Assembly (NCBI GenBank): GCA_050309605.1
Contig: JBNRMN010000067.1
Span: 96,001-160,000, forward strand
Source: Anaerohalosphaeraceae bacterium
GTDB taxonomy: Bacteria > Planctomycetota > Phycisphaerae > Sedimentisphaerales > Anaerohalosphaeraceae
Reading direction: 5' to 3'
DNA: 64,000 bases
The notes beneath the pieces were generated by a model. That model was not told the DNA's origin. It did no database searches and saw only the letters and a program-made list of their open reading frames with translations. This document shows positions 37,071 through 43,432 of the stretch, one piece after another; position 1 is the stretch's first letter; the number at the start of each line of letters is the position of its first letter. Both the position numbers and the translations under genes were made by a program.

Positions 37071-37140
37071 GGGATCACACAACGGCTTTTCATCGCGCTA
37101 ATGTATGCAAATTGGCGCGATTTTTTTAAAATTATTATCA

Positions 37141-37173
37141 AACTTCGCGTTTTCGGCGGCGTCATCATCTATG
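37141..37173 (+). promoter_or_regulatory. ECF-type promoter-like motif, copy 1 (upstream of the ECF sigma gene)
   Basis: AACTTCGCGTTTTCGGCGGCGTCATCATCTATG; AAC-N16-CGT; nearly identical to the copy at 43077-43110 on the minus strand. Confidence 0.6.
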
Positions 37174-37323: not shown

Positions 37324-37863
37324 GTGGAGAGTGAACAAACAAGAACGCCTCAGAATATGTCCGATAATGTAGATAAGGCTGCGCGTTTGTTTGCAGAACA
37401 GGAAACGTTTATCCGAGGAACCATCGGCTATTTTGTCAGCGACCGACAGGAACGGGAAGACATTTACCAGGAGTTGTTTGTTTATTTTGTCCGAAAACCG
37501 ATTCCTGAGGACATCTGCCGTCTCAGAACATGGCTGTATCGAGTCATTTTAGACCGCATCCGTGATCGAAAGCGTTCTCAGGCCCGTTACCAGCAGCATC
37601 TTCAGGCGTATGCCCAACAGCAGCTCAAAACGGAAATGCCGCCGCAGCGGGCTGTCGATCCCGACCAGATAGACGCATTGTTTGCTTTGATTCAGGAGCA
37701 TTTATCCCCCCATGAAGCGCGGGCAATTCGCTATAAATTTGTCCACCACTTGACTGTTCAACAGATCGCCCGCTCTATGAAGGTTAAATCCACCACCGTG
37801 TCGAATTATTTGGCGGTCGGGCTGAACAAGCTCCGAGCCTTACTGGACAAGGATGACACATAG
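37324..37863 (+). CDS. ECF RNA polymerase sigma factor
   Basis: EDIYQELF, RTWLYRVILDRIRD (region 2); LSPHEARAI...QIARSM...TVSNYL (region 4); the start may be ATG 37357. Confidence 0.88.
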   Translation: MESEQTRTPQNMSDNVDKAARLFAEQETFIRGTIGYFVSDRQEREDIYQELFVYFVRKPIPEDICRLRTWLYRVILDRIRDRKRSQARYQQHLQAYAQQQLKTEMPPQRAVDPDQIDALFALIQEHLSPHEARAIRYKFVHHLTVQQIARSMKVKSTTVSNYLAVGLNKLRALLDKDDT

Positions 37864-37880
37864 TCTGAAGGAGACACATT

Positions 37881-39134
37881 ATGGAATGCAAACAGGTTTG
37901 TGAATATTATTACAGTTATCTTGAAAAAGCGTATGAGTCCATCCCGCCGGCGCAGTTGAGCCATCTTCAGTCCTGCACGGCCTGTCAGCATGAAGTGGAA
38001 CGGCTGGCTCAGTCTCTTGCGGCCTCGGCCGAAGTGCAGAATCCGGCCTCGTGTCACTATCTGGCGCTGCATTACCGCATGTTGGGGCAATGGGTCGATT
38101 GTGCCGCGGCCAAGCCTTTTTTGCCCTGTCTGGCGATGGCGTCGCTGCCGCTGCACGCCCACACGCCGATCACGGCACATCGGGACGCCTGTTCGGCGTG
38201 CCGAGCCGACCAGGAGGCCATTGCGTCTTTGCATCTGTCCGATGAGCAATTGATGGATGCGTCGCGTTTTCTGGCCGGGCGCGGCGAGCTTGCCGAGGGC
38301 ATTTGCGAACAGGCACGGACCGTGCTGACGGCGATTCGCCGGCGGTCTTTGTCCGTCGTATTGACGCGCGCGTCGTTTTCCGAACCGGATGAGTCGAATG
38401 CGTTGCAGGTCGAGATCGCCGATGTTTCCTCGAAGCGGGCAAACGTTGCCTCTCGGCGCATGCCTCGACTGGTCGCCGCGACCGCGATGGCGGCGATGCT
38501 GATGGTGGCGGTGTTATTGTTTGTCCGATTGCCCTCGGTTGAAGCGCTGGATTTGCAGCGGTTCTATAACGCACTGGCGGATGCACAGACCATTTTGATT
38601 CGGACGGCTGTCCCCGAAGAAGACGCCCCCGTGCAGCGGATTTGGATTTCCCAGGCGCACGGACTGCGGCTTTTTGAGTCGCCGGAAAAAACGGTTTTGT
38701 ATGACGTTAATACCCAACGTCTGCTCCGGCGGGACAGCGCCCATTCCGGCGCGCAGGCAATACACGTTGCCGTCGCGGGCGCACCGGACTATCTGCAGCT
38801 TCCCTGGGGGCTGCTGCCGTTCAAAGACATTACCCAGTTGTCCGAGCATTGTCAGTGGACGCGACTGGATGACTTGTCCGATGAGCGGACCGTCGTTTAT
38901 GAGCTGTTCTGGGCCGAGACGATGTCCGCCGGTCGTGCCATTGAGAAAAAGTGGGTTGGATTTCTGGACAGAGCGACACATCTTCCCCACGCCATTCACC
39001 GATATGAGCGTCTTGCCGGTCAGTCGTCCTGGCGGCTGGTGATGACTACGGAAGTAGCCTATCCGGAGCCGTCGTCGGTGCTGGAGGCGGTGCGCAGCGC
39101 CCGCTTCGAGAGTTTCTACGGCGACCAGATGTAA
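37881..39134 (+). CDS. Putative anti-sigma factor: two HxxxCxxC zinc motifs, one TM helix, periplasmic LolA-like beta domain
   Basis: HLQSCTAC and HRDACSAC; TM LVAATAMAAMLMVAVLLFV; directly downstream of the ECF sigma. Confidence 0.78.
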   Translation: MECKQVCEYYYSYLEKAYESIPPAQLSHLQSCTACQHEVERLAQSLAASAEVQNPASCHYLALHYRMLGQWVDCAAAKPFLPCLAMASLPLHAHTPITAHRDACSACRADQEAIASLHLSDEQLMDASRFLAGRGELAEGICEQARTVLTAIRRRSLSVVLTRASFSEPDESNALQVEIADVSSKRANVASRRMPRLVAATAMAAMLMVAVLLFVRLPSVEALDLQRFYNALADAQTILIRTAVPEEDAPVQRIWISQAHGLRLFESPEKTVLYDVNTQRLLRRDSAHSGAQAIHVAVAGAPDYLQLPWGLLPFKDITQLSEHCQWTRLDDLSDERTVVYELFWAETMSAGRAIEKKWVGFLDRATHLPHAIHRYERLAGQSSWRLVMTTEVAYPEPSSVLEAVRSARFESFYGDQM

Positions 39135-39895
39135 AGCCGATTCGGTCCGCCGTCGTTGGGATCGCCCGCGGCCAGGAGCGACGCTTTCAGCGAGCGGGCG
39201 TACCCATCGGCAAACGCGACATTGATCGAATGTCCGGTGTGTCGGCCTCGAACGGCGTCGTGAAGCTGGGCCGGATCAATACGGCGGCGGCTGTTGTCGG
39301 CAAGACCGGGCAGATAGAACGCGCTGTCCCGTTTGGGATTTTCAAAGTCCGACCGTCCTGTCGGCAAGGCGGCCTTCCAGCTCATCAGTGCATAGCCTGA
39401 ATCGCACAGAAGTACCGTACGGGCCGGCTGTTTCAGTTGGCTTATTTTCAGCGGCGTCCCCTTGAATTCCGTTTCTTCGTCGGCGCTGCCGATTTTGTAA
39501 ATCGCATAATTGACGCCATAGTTGGCGCACAAAACATTGTCTGTCGGCGAGGTGGATGGACAGCTCAGCGAGGCGTCCTCGGTGGGATTGCGGCTGTCGC
39601 TGACCTGGTGAAACCACCACCACCCCTGCCAGTCCAATGCCGCATCCCCCACAAAACCGCCCGGCGGCGCTGAAGAAAAGCCCCCGATATGGCAAAACCC
39701 GAAAGGAAACCGGTCGTTGTTGTCTTGGGTAAATACCTGCGCGGCCATGGTATGTTGTCTGAGGTTGGACTGACAGACTACACGTTGCCCACGCTGTCTG
39801 CTGCTTATCAGCGCAGGCAACACAATTCCCAGCAATAAGGCAATCAGGGCAACGACCGTCACCAGTTCAATCAGCATAAAACCCCATCGGCGCAT
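39116..39895 (-). CDS. Prepilin-type N-terminal methylation / H-X9-DG (DUF1559-like) protein
   Basis: RRWGFMLIELVTVVALIALLLGIVLPAL, VCQSNLRQ, NYGVN, RHTGHSINVAFADG. Confidence 0.9.
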   Translation of the reverse strand: MRRWGFMLIELVTVVALIALLLGIVLPALISSRQRGQRVVCQSNLRQHTMAAQVFTQDNNDRFPFGFCHIGGFSSAPPGGFVGDAALDWQGWWWFHQVSDSRNPTEDASLSCPSTSPTDNVLCANYGVNYAIYKIGSADEETEFKGTPLKISQLKQPARTVLLCDSGYALMSWKAALPTGRSDFENPKRDSAFYLPGLADNSRRRIDPAQLHDAVRGRHTGHSINVAFADGYARSLKASLLAAGDPNDGGPNRLYIWSP

Positions 39896-39901
39896 ACATA
39901 C

Positions 39902-39930
39902 ATTATATGCGCTGAGGCCGTCCGATACAA
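39902..39930 (-). promoter_or_regulatory. Sigma70-type promoter giving a probably leaderless mRNA
   Basis: TTGTAT-N17-TATAAT, then 6 nt to the ATG at 39895. Confidence 0.7.
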
Positions 39931-39932
39931 CC

Positions 39933-39967
39933 AAAAAAACAAAAACAGGACAAAGAATTTCCTGTTC
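39933..39967 (-). terminator. Intrinsic terminator after the C39 gene
   Basis: Minus strand AACAGGA...TCCTGTT followed by TTTGTTTTTTT. Confidence 0.7.
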
Positions 39968-39997
39968 TTGCCGTTGCCCCCGTGTACAACAGTCGCC

Positions 39998-41665
39998 TTA
40001 CATACACGCCCGAATATACCGGCTGTACCATCGACCGGTGATTTCACACCAGTTCGGGTAGTAGGGGTGGTTGATGCAATGGGTATAATCGTAGCCGATC
40101 ATCTTTTGTCCGGTGCAGGTCGTGCCGTAATAGTCTTCCCGACAGCCGTAGCGCAGCCAGAACCGATAGTACGCCCCGCCGCACAAACCGCCGATCGGTT
40201 CGGAACAAAGCCATTGTTCTTCGTTCTGGATCAATTCAGTGCAGGAATAGCCGATGTTGCCGCCGAGAATTTGCTGCTGACGGGCGTCATCAAGCAGTTC
40301 CACCTGTCCGCTGAGCACAATCGGCTGATCGGCCACCAGCAGCGCCACGCCGTCTTTCCAGTCCGCCAGCAATTCGCGTATCGGGCGTTTCCAGTAAAAT
40401 TTACGGTCGGTCAAGTCCACCGTCCAGACCGCATCTTTTTCGATGCGATCCAGCACCACGTAGTGCCGGGCGGTCGGGTAATGCAGAATGATCCCGTAGT
40501 TCTTGAATTCGGCCAGCGATTTGACATCCGTCTTGACGGCCGCACAATACAGCCCTGCGGCCTCCAGCGCTTGGCGGATGGCGTACAGACTGGTCATTTC
40601 AGGTTGTCCGGCCGCGGCCGGGGCGGGCGGATTTGGTGTTTCCGGCAGGCTCAGACTGATGTTCTTTGCGAAGCGTTTGGCAATATGCGCCACCGCCAGG
40701 ACCGCACAATTGGCCTGCTCCTTTTGAACCGATAACGTCATCACTTTTTGTTCGAGCATTCGAGTGATGTCCGCCGCTTCGGAAGCGTGGTACAGAAACG
40801 ACTTCATCTGCCCGTACGGCTGAAGCTCAACGACCGTGCCTTCGGCAAAGACCGGCTGATACGGTTCGGTCGGACGGTTCGCATCGACCGACAGAAACCG
40901 CCAGTCTTCATACGACACCAGCGTCGGGGTGTCGCCCTGCAAATGAAACCGTTCGACGACGATGATAAAGGGAATCCAGTTCTGTCCGATTTGTCGATAG
41001 TCTCGATAATGCTGTCGGATGGTTACCGCTTGGTTTTTCATGGTGTAGGAAAGAGGCAGGAAGGCTTTTTCCGGGTCGAGAACCATCGTCGTTTCAACAG
41101 GCGACCGGTCGGGGTTGTCGGTCAGCGTCAGCCGCATCAGCCGCCGTCCGTCTTCAACAAATGCCGCCGCCGAAGGATTCCTCTCGGCCAGTTTTTCGCG
41201 AGTGAACAGTCCCAGCCCCCACGGAATGACCCCTGCGGTAAACGGGCCGAACAGATTCATCGGCATTTCCTGTTGGTCCATCACCACGACGGCATAATCG
41301 GCGGATTTGTAATAGCGGGTGTAGGCGTTGCCGTCATACGCAAAAATCCGGTGTTTGTTACTTTGATGGTCCGGCCGCTCCACGTCCGGCGAGGCTGCAT
41401 CCGCCGGCGGATCCGCAAGGACAATCTCCCAATAAAACCGGTTTCCGTCAAACCGAAAAAGTTCCTGCGATTCATACGCCATTTCTTCGCCAATGCGATA
41501 TTCGAGATATTTGGCGCGGATCGTCCCAGCCTCAAGCCAGGTATGTTTCGGCGCAGCGGTCAACTCCTCAAGCAAGGCGTTGACCTGACTTTCATCAAGC
41601 GTTTGATCTGCCGCTGCCGCGGCGAGAACCGACCCCATTAATACAGCATAAACAAGCGTCTTCAT
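39998..41665 (-). CDS. Exported protein: beta-rich (LolA-like) N domain, C39 peptidase domain, double-glycine motif, Cys-rich C-terminal peptide
   Basis: Signal peptide MKTLVYAVLMGSVLAAAAA; QANCAVLAV, TSLYAIRQALEAAGL, HYVVLD, TVD, WKDGVALLV; ELLDDARQQQILGG followed by an 86-aa tail with 8 Cys. Confidence 0.8.
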   Translation of the reverse strand: MKTLVYAVLMGSVLAAAAADQTLDESQVNALLEELTAAPKHTWLEAGTIRAKYLEYRIGEEMAYESQELFRFDGNRFYWEIVLADPPADAASPDVERPDHQSNKHRIFAYDGNAYTRYYKSADYAVVVMDQQEMPMNLFGPFTAGVIPWGLGLFTREKLAERNPSAAAFVEDGRRLMRLTLTDNPDRSPVETTMVLDPEKAFLPLSYTMKNQAVTIRQHYRDYRQIGQNWIPFIIVVERFHLQGDTPTLVSYEDWRFLSVDANRPTEPYQPVFAEGTVVELQPYGQMKSFLYHASEAADITRMLEQKVMTLSVQKEQANCAVLAVAHIAKRFAKNISLSLPETPNPPAPAAAGQPEMTSLYAIRQALEAAGLYCAAVKTDVKSLAEFKNYGIILHYPTARHYVVLDRIEKDAVWTVDLTDRKFYWKRPIRELLADWKDGVALLVADQPIVLSGQVELLDDARQQQILGGNIGYSCTELIQNEEQWLCSEPIGGLCGGAYYRFWLRYGCREDYYGTTCTGQKMIGYDYTHCINHPYYPNWCEITGRWYSRYIRACM

Positions 41666-41681: not shown

Positions 41682-43040
41682 TTATTCAACTGACTCCATT
41701 TCAGCGGATTGTTTAACGGCTTCAACAAATTCCGTCCATTCGTCTTCATCGACGGTCTCCTGCAATTCGGGCGATTCATCCCAAATGGTCTCGAGTGCTT
41801 CGACCATTTCCTCGGTGGTCTTTTCCGTGGTCGTGTCGTCCTCGACGACGATCGGGTCGCCGGCGGACATCATCTGCATCTGACCTTCCGGTTCATACTG
41901 GTGCAGCACCATCGGCCCAAGAACCACCCGTTCCTCGTCCAGATGGGTGTACAGGCTCAGGGTGACGGTCCCCGGCATCATGGGCGTATAGACAAAGGAG
42001 GCAATCGGTCCGTCTTCGATCGGTCCGCTGAAGCTGGCGGCCAGGAACTGAATGCCTTCCTGCTGGATCTCGCCCGGCCCCCAGTAGTCAAAGAACGTGG
42101 AATGCGGCCAGGCCAGCAGCTCGGCGGTTCCGTCGCCCGGCGGGTCGTTGGGGTCATACGGCGTGTTGTCGATCCAGCCGAGATTCGGATCGGAAATCAG
42201 CACCTCAAGCCAGAATATCGCGACGTCGTTATCAATCGTTGTTTTGTCCAGATACAGCCGAACACTTTGACCGACGGGGATGGAGATTTCATCACGCCCG
42301 TTCGGGTCTGTAATGGAATAAAACAGCGTCGGCTCCGGCGCCGGCCCCGGCGTCACCTCAGGCGGCCATGTGGGCGTTCCCCACAGCCAGAAATCCGCAA
42401 ACATCAGTACATCCGACAGCCCCACTACGCCGTCGCGATCCAGATCAGCGCCGCCGCAGGTGTTCGGGTCGGCGCACTCGGTGAGCCAATACGATGAAAA
42501 AATCGCAAAATCCGCATAATTGACCACGCCGTCGTCGTTCAAATCCCGCGAGGCCGTATTGTCCAGTACGACCGTCTTATTGGGATCCGGCACCGTAAAC
42601 GACGAACTGTGATTGTAATAATGTATCAGGCACTCTCCCTCGTCCAGCGGTGTGTAATCCAGCACGAACCAATCGCCGGGCGTGCGGCTTAACTCATCGG
42701 TGTACAGATCAAAACCGCTCATCCACGAATCCCGCCAGTGCAGGAGAAAGGCCCGCCGGCCGGCTGCTTCCAGACCGCTGGCCTGTCCGGCCGGCGCATT
42801 GGGGTCGTCGCTGCGCCAACTGAGCATACCCGCAGGGCGATGTTCATTATGAATGAACAGGCCGCCGCTCCAGAGGTCGTTGGCGTCCGAATGCACCAGC
42901 AGGCTGACCTGTGAGCCGAGCATCACCTCGTGATGCCACAGCGGGCGCAGATGAACCGGATCGCAGACCGTTACGTTGACCGCTGCCCGGACCGACAGTA
43001 CGCCGACCAGGAGGATGCAAAACACGAACAGGTTTTTCAT
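41682..43040 (-). CDS. Exported protein with a central dockerin-like double Ca-binding repeat flanked by two related beta domains
   Basis: Signal peptide; DLNDDGVVNYADFAIFSSYWL and DLDRDGVVGLSDVLMFADFWL; acidic helical tail; GAGGAG RBS. Confidence 0.82.
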   Translation of the reverse strand: MKNLFVFCILLVGVLSVRAAVNVTVCDPVHLRPLWHHEVMLGSQVSLLVHSDANDLWSGGLFIHNEHRPAGMLSWRSDDPNAPAGQASGLEAAGRRAFLLHWRDSWMSGFDLYTDELSRTPGDWFVLDYTPLDEGECLIHYYNHSSSFTVPDPNKTVVLDNTASRDLNDDGVVNYADFAIFSSYWLTECADPNTCGGADLDRDGVVGLSDVLMFADFWLWGTPTWPPEVTPGPAPEPTLFYSITDPNGRDEISIPVGQSVRLYLDKTTIDNDVAIFWLEVLISDPNLGWIDNTPYDPNDPPGDGTAELLAWPHSTFFDYWGPGEIQQEGIQFLAASFSGPIEDGPIASFVYTPMMPGTVTLSLYTHLDEERVVLGPMVLHQYEPEGQMQMMSAGDPIVVEDDTTTEKTTEEMVEALETIWDESPELQETVDEDEWTEFVEAVKQSAEMESVE

Positions 43041-43076
43041 AAAATTCAATCTCCTCACAAAAATAAATGATGTGTA

Positions 43077-43110
43077 CATCGATGGGGACGCCGCTCGAAA
43101 ACGCTATGTT
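43077..43110 (-). promoter_or_regulatory. ECF-type promoter-like motif, copy 2 (upstream of the dockerin-C39 operon)
   Basis: AACATAGCGTTTTCGAGCGGCGTCCCCATCGATG; AAC-N17-CGT. Confidence 0.6.
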
Positions 43111-43218
43111 GGTGGTGTTTTGAGATTTTTTTGGAAAAAGTCCGAAAAAAAGGAAATTTTTGAAAATTTACCACATTTTTCACATTTTTTTCAAACTCAT
43201 CACACATATTACATCGCT

Positions 43219-43389: not shown

Positions 43390-43432
43390 AAAATTAAAAG
43401 GCGTTGTCATGGAAAACAACGCCTTAAGTTTT
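43390..43432. terminator. Probably bidirectional terminator ending the etf operon
   Basis: AAGGCGTTGT/ACAACGCCTT stem (43398-43425) with A-rich left and T-rich right flanks. Confidence 0.75.

Follow-up and report, generated by a model that had tools for sequence, protein, structure and literature searches.

The window analysed here is a stretch of 64,000 nucleotides (nt) from an Anaerohalosphaeraceae bacterium (Planctomycetota, Phycisphaerae, Sedimentisphaerales; assembly GCA_050309605.1, contig JBNRMN010000067.1, positions 96,001 to 160,000). It contains a gene for a protein of 555 amino acids (aa), from here on the C39 fusion, in which a cysteine peptidase of family C39, a double-glycine leader of the kind that such peptidases recognise and an 8-Cys domain of 86 aa follow one another in a single chain. 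C39 peptidases are the textbook cytoplasmic gatekeepers of ATP-binding cassette (ABC) exporters and act on separate precursor peptides. In the C39 fusion this recognition pair appears to have been rewired, with enzyme, leader and cargo in one apparently Sec-exported chain and no C39 transporter in the genome. The architecture, its conservation and the gene cassette that surrounds it are solid. On balance we lean, with modest confidence, towards a one-shot module that would release its own tail in cis and work in an envelope signalling circuit, not as a polymorphic toxin; the cleavage itself (predicted after Gly469), the action in cis, the single turnover and the role of the tail are what we infer from models and conservation.

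Architecture of the C39 fusion

The protein consists of five parts, a signal-like N-terminus, a LolA/RseB-fold domain, the C39 domain, the double-glycine leader and the 86-aa tail:

39998..41665, minus strand: C39 fusion gene, 555 aa, stop-free translation
41606..41665, minus strand: signal-peptide-like N-terminus, residues 1-20 (MKTLVYAVLMGSVLAAAAAD), from the sequence and from similar hydrophobic N-termini in aligned homologues
40781..41605, minus strand: LolA/LolB/RseB-fold domain, residues 21-295, from AlphaFold2 (AF2) and Foldseek
40316..40768, minus strand: C39 cysteine peptidase domain, residues ~300-450, from Pfam PF03412, a PDB profile and Foldseek
40259..40309, minus strand: double-glycine leader, residues 453-469 (GQVELLDDARQQQILGG), from conservation and model, with the predicted scissile bond Gly469|Asn470
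40001..40258, minus strand: 8-Cys all-beta tail, residues 470-555, with the stop codon at 39998-40000

A longer frame with a start at 41779 also exists. The ATG at 41665 lies 16 nt past the stop of the upstream gene and has an AGGAGA ribosome-binding site 6 nt to its 5' side, and in the displayed alignment the N-termini of the homologues start near the MK at this position. Read by eye, the N-terminus has the pattern of a Sec signal (MK, a hydrophobic stretch and AAA|AD), so that the protein looks like one exported via Sec. The full-length AF2 model, built from a 44-sequence alignment, has a mean predicted local distance difference test score (pLDDT) of 87.4 and a predicted template-modelling score (pTM) of 0.85, with the leader blocks at 90 or more and the LolA-like domain mostly above 90.

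An earlier, sequence-only reading of this DNA had proposed a protease, a leader and a separable C-terminal domain in a single exported chain, and this layout is supported. The beta-rich N-terminal domain of ~290 aa that it described is present and has a LolA/LolB/RseB fold by Foldseek. Its candidate catalytic residues could be placed at Cys320 (the QANC motif, codon 40706-40708), His401 (HYVVLD, codon 40463-40465) and Asp417 (TVD, codon 40415-40417); the stretch that it gave as the leader, ...VELLDDARQQQILGG, terminates at Gly469, and its tail NIGYSC...YIRACM corresponds to residues 470-555 (40001-40258).

The C39 domain and its leader

The middle domain belongs to family C39 by profile, by its conserved triad and by its papain-like fold. 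It matches PF03412 over residues 312-447 (43.3 bits against a gathering cut-off of 22, E 4.1e-11), covering profile positions 5-131 of 133, and a profile of the family found PCAT1 (E 5.2e-6) and ComA (E 8.1e-6) in the PDB, with Cys, His and Asp aligned with the corresponding regions of both. Foldseek matched the domain to LahT150 with its leader (6mpz; template-modelling score on the target, TMt, 0.71; root-mean-square deviation, rmsd, 3.2; 133 columns) and to ComA (5xe9, TMt 0.71). Conservation was measured over 158 non-identical sequences (161 in all), namely the protein itself, complete open reading frames (ORFs) of at least 500 aa from related loci and database proteins of 500-650 aa, incomplete or shorter ORFs being dropped. 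Cys320 and His401 are present in all 158, Asp417 in 156 and Asn319, immediately before the catalytic Cys, in 155; the whole motif set (Cys/His/Asp, G-[GAS] and the tail Cys) is retained across these homologues. The sequence-only reading had named the conservation of the triad and of the GG as a way of checking it, and both have come out in its favour.

No ABC transmembrane or nucleotide-binding domain was found by Pfam in the 555 aa, and a PF03412 search of the 3.4-Mb, 99.7%-complete genome revealed no C39-bearing ABC transporter. The earlier remark that no ABC transporter lies nearby holds and can be extended, for C39-type transporters, to the whole genome. The sole other PF03412 match in this genome (G000:C67:61111-61506, plus strand; locus L083:1093-1917) encodes a membrane protein of 274 aa. 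Its N-terminal half is hydrophobic and seems to cross the membrane several times, Peptidase_C39 matches at the C-terminal end (E 2.6e-10), and no ABC transporter is fused to it.

Residues 453-469 are a canonical double-glycine leader. PMC6363468 gives the rule for such leaders as G at -2, G/A/S at -1, hydrophobic residues at -4, -7 and -12 and a helix from -4 to -11. All these elements are found when positions are numbered with the cut taken after residue 469. Position -2 is Gly in 151 of the 158 sequences and -1 is Gly (74), Ala (49) or Ser (24), that is, one of the three in 147; -4 is Ile in 135, -7 is Leu (108), Gln (29) or Met (9), -12 is I/L/V/M/F in all 158 and -15 is mainly Phe, Val, Leu or Ile. 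The G-[GAS] site is kept family-wide. Most of the sequences that seem to lack the Gly are shifted in the alignment and still read IIG-x-G. In the AF2 model a helix occupies residues 460-464 (-10 to -6). When a hidden Markov model (HMM) of the leader was run against the genome, the best match was the C39 fusion gene itself (E 0.083), and no second leader was significant, cassette proteins included, at the low power of a model of 19 columns.

The modelling of the leader helix in the C39 groove, another check suggested by the sequence-only reading, placed it at Cys320/His401. In this two-chain model residues 296-452 were paired with residues 453-555, with the family alignment provided for each chain. 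The score was 0.69, against 0.30 for the best of three controls; the mark applied is one reached by 116 of 157 solved complexes and by 2 of 215 mismatched pairs, and the runs agreed in at least 70% of their contacts with a partner pLDDT of at least 72. Confident contacts on the partner side fall only within 453-472 (453-458, 460, 462-472), none coming from the 8-Cys domain beyond. On the enzyme side they involve residues 319-321, 355-361, 364, 375-380, 382-383, 386, 395, 397, 399-402, 440 and 451-452, so that the modelled leader reaches Asn-Cys-Ala at 319-321 (including Cys320) and 399-402 around His401. A cis arrangement is sterically possible because residue 453 stays beside 451-452. The model as a whole supports, but does not show, binding of the leader to the C39 groove.

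The 8-Cys tail

The tail (86 aa, 10,257 Da) contains 8 Cys, 12 Tyr, 4 Trp and 10 Gly. Its Cys residues, at 475, 487, 495, 508, 517, 530, 540 and 554, are each kept in 157-158 of the 158 sequences, and nowhere in its sequence are Cys paired as CxxC, which would have hinted at a classical metal site. Modelled alone from 68 tails it is all-beta, with seven strands (pLDDT 95.6, pTM 0.77). It folds by itself and has no confident contact with the C39 domain, which speaks against the possibility, considered in the sequence-only reading, that it is an inseparable part of the protease. Complete members of the family all carry the same 8-Cys domain, in tails of 78-98 residues that are usually acidic (median net charge -4) and aromatic-rich. 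The identity between pairs of tails averages 0.40 (0.34 with the Cys columns removed), on a par with the LolA-like domain (0.40) and the C39 domain (0.42), and the variable tip among homologues that had been suggested is not borne out.

Comparison of the predicted tail with known structures gave a best E of 0.88 with Foldseek against the PDB and a best Z of 3.9 (rmsd 4.0, 55 aligned) with VIA-align against 48,161 representative chains, none of which reached Z 5. No Pfam family was matched, the best E for the 68 tails being 0.059. For a predicted structure this means weak or missing likeness and does not prove a new fold; such a confident prediction with no match to a solved fold makes the domain a good target for structural genomics.

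The leader and tail together (101 aa) were searched with phmmer against 1.84 billion representatives and gave 76 matches at E <=0.001. Members of the family of 542-618 aa, matched at their C-termini, account for 46 of them. Another 29 are shorter, and 16 of the 17 inspected are N-terminally truncated, carrying C39/leader sequence or starting inside the tail. P0086 (855 aa) was rejected as a relative of the tail, being a repeat protein whose match looks spurious. In the seventeenth, P0116 (118 aa), a signal-like N-terminus directly precedes the tail, which starts about at the would-be cut, and this sequence is a possible stand-alone 8-Cys domain. A metagenome scan for P0116 yielded locus L084, rejected as an off-frame chance match inside another gene, and locus L085, matched over 13 residues only. 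An HMM of the tail detected no second copy in the genome.

Distribution of the family

A search of protein databases retrieved 45 relatives, 44 of which cover at least 89% of the query at 543-623 aa; their identity to the C39 fusion in the first alignment is 27-65%. The other is a fragment of 332 aa on a contig of 1,276 bp. One genome from each of 185,579 species was scanned with a pattern, and 119 places proved to code for a relative. Of these, 80 were kept; by title they are nearly all metagenome-assembled genomes of Phycisphaerae, Sedimentisphaerales, Anaerohalosphaeraceae or Planctomycetota, some being titled "uncultured Pirellulales". With a profile of the tail, 7 carriers were found among 401 evenly sampled genomes of the phylum, all in the same order as the source, with one match each in ORFs of 563-629 aa. 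The C39 fusion is also single-copy in its own genome. In this survey of the family, fused and split forms were covered from 305 to 972 aa. A full-text literature search (subscription journals not covered) found no paper on this family of C39-leader-tail fusions.

A conserved cassette around the gene

The C39 fusion belongs to a conserved cassette of five genes, absent from the sequence-only reading, that came to light by tblastn of the ORFs of the window against the 80 loci. Neighbours were counted only at loci with enough flanking sequence and only on the correct side and strand:

41682..43040, minus strand: dockerin-like exported protein, directly upstream in 58 of 65 loci (Dockerin_1, 28.1 bits vs 22.9)
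39116..39895, minus strand: pseudopilin-like protein with a prepilin-type motif (G|FMLIE), directly downstream in 66 of 71 loci
37881..39134, plus strand: membrane anti-sigma factor with an extracytoplasmic domain of ~195 aa, convergent, in 60 of 65 loci
37324..37863, plus strand: sigma-70 family factor of the extracytoplasmic function (ECF) type, convergent, in 56 of 62 loci (TIGR02937, 60 bits vs 42.9; Sigma70_r2 and r4_2)

The genes that flank the cassette (GH95 hydrolase, ETF-QO, ETF) are unrelated to it, and terminator-like hairpins border it at 37092-37121 and 43398-43425. The dockerin-like gene probably starts with MKNLF at 43040, preceded by GAGGAG; the first ATG of its ORF (41682-43079) is at 43079, only 7 nt past a promoter-like -10 element. 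The N-terminal domain of its product matched no Pfam family. The N-terminus of the pseudopilin-like protein matched the GspG and PilA models below their cut-offs and DUF1559 weakly. Where a single HxxxCxxC motif is usual, the anti-sigma factor has two, H28/C32/C35 and H100/C104/C107, both at least 90% conserved in 63 sequences. It qualifies as a zinc-binding (ZAS) anti-sigma factor by this motif; its sole profile match is weak (RsrA, E 0.071) and neither of its halves matched a Pfam family. PADLOC, run on four of the cassette proteins, gave no match.

The N-terminal domain of the C39 fusion belongs, at the level of its modelled fold only, to the LolA/LolB/RseB superfamily. It matched no Pfam family. 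Foldseek found LolA3 (9tp6, E 2e-8), LolB (9tpm, E 1.1e-6, TMt 0.53) and RseB (3m4w, E 6.5e-5), the RseB/MucB matches ranging from E 6.5e-5 to 2e-4. A LolA-superfamily domain whose gene has those of a membrane anti-sigma factor and an ECF sigma factor as neighbours is reminiscent of the RseB/MucB-RseA/MucA-sigma-E systems. However, there is no Pfam MucB_RseB match in the C39 fusion, the TM-scores with RseB/MucB are modest (0.26-0.31 on the target), the domain is here joined to a protease and a cargo domain, and the C39 fusion gene is convergent to the sigma operon instead of lying within it. The extracytoplasmic domain of the anti-sigma factor gave no significant hhalign match with the LolA-like domain (probability 2.2%, P 0.022); a local resemblance of LPWGLLPF to IPWGLGLF between the two is likewise non-significant.

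Proposed mechanism and alternatives

In the mechanism that we favour, the leader would bend back and enter the substrate groove of the C39 domain in the same chain, where a short helix would present the hydrophobic residues at -4, -7 and -12 and the extended Gly468-Gly469 would lie at Cys320/His401. A periplasmic cut in cis after Gly469 would free the tail of ~10.3 kDa. Since the leader lies N-terminal to the cut, it would remain covalently attached to the peptidase, the groove would stay occupied and the module could therefore act only once. The case for self-cutting at this bond is that the triad is intact, that a perfect cleavable site is docked at it in the model and that the leader HMM, short and of low power, recognised no other leader in the genome. 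Zymogens normally have their inhibitory piece removed; a leader that stays tethered is more in keeping with a device dedicated to release. The released domain would serve signalling or housekeeping at the envelope, in a circuit specific to this lineage of Phycisphaerae; that it is single-copy, evenly conserved and acidic, with sigma/anti-sigma neighbours, suggests that it works within the cassette, whether as ligand, as sensor or as structural partner.

Several points weigh against such self-release. The periplasm is normally oxidising and hostile to a free catalytic thiol. In the genome there is no match to Pfam DSBA, DsbB, VKOR or Thioredoxin_4 (controls positive in 3-9 of 14 reference genomes), which would favour a reduced catalytic thiol and, on the other hand, weakens the case for enzyme-made disulfides among the 8 Cys. 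Of the 4-disulfide mini-protein proposed from the sequence alone, the eight Cys stand and the four disulfides, inferred only, are made doubtful by this absence. The Gln that canonically lies six residues before the catalytic Cys of C39 peptidases is not conserved among the 158 sequences, 46 having Q at -4/-2, 22 having Q at -2 and 36 having none within 8 residues, and Q at -6 occurs in just 2 of the 12 commonest patterns; the role of this proposed oxyanion Gln has been questioned for LahT150 (PMC6363468). In a few members position -1 is L, R, D, E or N, and P0116 is the only candidate for a stand-alone tail that was seen. Finally, the docking pass may reflect model memory of solved C39-leader complexes (6mpz, PCAT1); because such complexes are already solved, the docked leader shows likeness, not activity, and as a model it fits an uncleaved, autoinhibitory latch equally well.

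This last arrangement would make the leader a pseudo-substrate that closes the C39 site and is left uncut, or is cut only on activation. A cue at the LolA/RseB-like domain or at the tail would displace it, and the peptidase would then cut a different protein of the envelope. If this were the anti-sigma factor, cut in its extracytoplasmic domain, the peptidase would be the site-1 protease of a circuit like that of RseA/RseB/DegS. We regard this arrangement as unlikely, if worth keeping in sight. The RseB/MucB matches of the LolA-like domain, the anti-sigma/ECF sigma pair conserved beside the gene and the leader modelled in the groove are all consistent with it, as is the near-invariant triad, which fits any real protease function. 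However, the leader carries a perfect cleavable G-[GAS] site and not a non-cleavable variant, and once cut it would stay tethered and should continue to inhibit; furthermore, the leader HMM, with its low power, found no second candidate substrate in the genome, cassette included, and no conserved G-[GAS] site was seen in the conservation map of the anti-sigma extracytoplasmic domain. It is also conceivable, and to us quite improbable, that the chain is never cut and that C39 is a binding module clamping the linker, with the tail held in place in an envelope protein. The full-length pTM of 0.85 suggests a defined arrangement of domains, and C39-like domains of type 1 secretion transporters are known that bind substrate without catalysis. 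Yet those domains lack the catalytic Cys (both points from PMC6363468), whereas here the triad is kept in 156-158 of the 158 sequences. Such retention of Cys and His (158/158 each) and Asp (156/158) argues for selection on catalysis, and the tail has no confident contact with the C39 domain.

The sequence-only reading had leaned towards a toxin or antimicrobial, that is, a precursor of a strain-variable 8-Cys mini-protein aimed at competitors. A C39 peptidase with a GG leader is indeed the classic logic of bacteriocin maturation (PMC6363468), one source names a homologue "bacteriocin-like protein", and the tail is small, Cys-rich and without a known fold. Nevertheless, the tail is as conserved as the enzyme domains, no polymorphism was seen, there is one copy in each of the 7 carriers and in the source genome, and the tails are mostly acidic and not cationic. 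No conserved small immunity-like gene was seen beside it, the neighbours being regulators and exported proteins (for which an unrecognised immunity role is conceivable), and PADLOC was without a match. We consider this origin very improbable, leave a small remainder to readings other than these four, and self-release in cis of a domain with a function in the cell's own envelope remains the reading that we prefer.

Comparison with known C39 systems

With the peptidase domains of peptidase-containing ABC transporters (PCAT/AMS; LahT150, PCAT1, ComA) the C39 fusion shares the Pfam family, the fold, the Cys/His/Asp triad and the grammar of the substrate, with G-[GAS] and hydrophobic residues at -4/-7/-12 on a short helix (PMC6363468), and its modelled leader contacts the catalytic Cys and His as in those enzymes. 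It differs in that no ABC transporter is fused to it and no C39-bearing one is encoded in the genome, in its signal-like N-terminus for export (the PCAT peptidase is cytoplasmic), in having its substrate in the same chain, C-terminal to the enzyme, in the non-conserved Gln at -6 and in the added N-terminal LolA-fold domain.

A C39 domain that cuts its own chain has been described in StbD-CT, a CdiA-type toxin which, according to bioRxiv 10.64898/2026.05.07.723447, cuts itself in cis after Gly157-Gly158, depends on the catalytic Cys and does so only when reduced. The cut at a diglycine in cis and its dependence on redox state are the likeness with what we propose. In StbD, however, the linker that carries the GG precedes the peptidase, and the part set free is the peptidase toxin itself, with its immunity protein (same source), whereas here a full leader lies C-terminal to the peptidase, the part set free would be a non-enzymatic 8-Cys domain, and there is neither a CdiA context nor a recognisable immunity-like gene. 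Export of a C39 peptidase without fusion to an ABC transporter is known from FapD of the Pseudomonas Fap amyloid system, which is exported via Sec and active in the periplasm. According to PMC5557850, FapD has a single domain and acts on a separate Fap protein, still unclear, without a canonical leader; the C39 fusion has a canonical leader in cis and lies in an ECF sigma cassette rather than an amyloid operon. The Tox-PL-C39 domains of polymorphic toxins (PMC3482391) are C-terminal toxin domains in another arrangement.

If self-cleavage is true, it would be the second natural example of C39 processing in cis after StbD-CT, and it would provide a compact, genetically encoded module for release in a single turnover, functional outside the cytoplasm, that could be developed into a self-removing tag. 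It would also offer a first way into an ECF sigma cassette that has yet to be characterised, from a lineage that is little studied and for the most part uncultured.

Regulation of the cassette

A near-identical motif of 17/18 nt, GCGTTTTCG(A)GCGGCGTC, with CAA(A)C ahead of it (CAA(A)C-N-GCGTTTTCG(A)GCGGCGTC), precedes both transcription units of the cassette in the correct orientation:

37138..37163, plus strand: ECF-promoter-like motif TCAAAC-N-GCGTTTTCGGCGGCGTC, upstream of the sigma gene
43087..43112, minus strand: matching motif CCAAC-N-GCGTTTTCGAGCGGCGTC, upstream of the dockerin-like gene

ECF promoters are typically marked by AAC and CGT elements with a spacing of about 16-17 nt. The 13-14-nt core of the motif occurs at 6 sites in the 3.4-Mb genome (control 1) and the full motif at just these two. 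In L003, whose protein is 60% identical, TCAAC-N-GGCGGCGTC lies upstream of both the sigma and the dockerin-like genes, and L002 and L004 have a like motif upstream of the dockerin-like gene. Farther out, the expression AAC-N16/17-CGT[CA] matched 2 of 63 upstream regions on the dockerin side and 4 of 56 on the sigma side, an ungapped comparison of 28-mers within loci did no better than shuffles, and counting of bipartite k-mers upstream of the genes returned low-complexity pairs only. The motif is supported just for the source cassette and its closest relatives L002, L003 and L004, no common motif having been found beyond them. The cassette's own ECF sigma factor probably recognises it as a promoter.

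One could go farther and suppose that the five genes make up a circuit, complete in itself, for envelope sensing in strictly anaerobic Phycisphaerae. In it the ECF sigma factor would drive both its own operon and that of the dockerin-like and C39 genes through the shared motif; the thiol peptidase would be a one-shot, redox-gated switch, active only with Cys320 reduced, as in StbD-CT; and the double-ZAS anti-sigma factor would, through its extracytoplasmic domain, read the freed 8-Cys domain, of a new fold, as a ligand or as a redox sensor. Taken jointly these points are, in our view, distinctly unlikely. Were they to hold, a protein signal released by a protease, both made and sensed in the periplasm, would have been assembled from the parts of bacteriocin maturation without a transporter.

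Five contigs of the RNA library X1 match the cassette at 99% likeness or more, in the sigma and anti-sigma genes and in the 3' part of the pseudopilin-like one; none matches the C39 gene. Run X2 (probably DNA) has two 151-nt pieces inside the C39 gene; these contigs cannot show transcription, its starts or its levels. Between the stop of the C39 gene and the pseudopilin-like gene there is a hairpin (AACAGGA...TCCTGTT) followed by a T-run, at ~39935-39975 on the minus strand, and a TATAAT (39896-39910, minus strand) lies just before the pseudopilin-like ATG at 39895, which suggests that this gene may have its own promoter or be attenuated. In loci L031, L040, L043, L060 and L078 a long and well-conserved non-coding block (…gatagatgatgacaagggag…ctattgatgctgggttaaggttctaaaaactcat…) is found ~130 nt upstream of the dockerin-like gene, which could be a leader RNA or could reflect the close kinship of one subclade.

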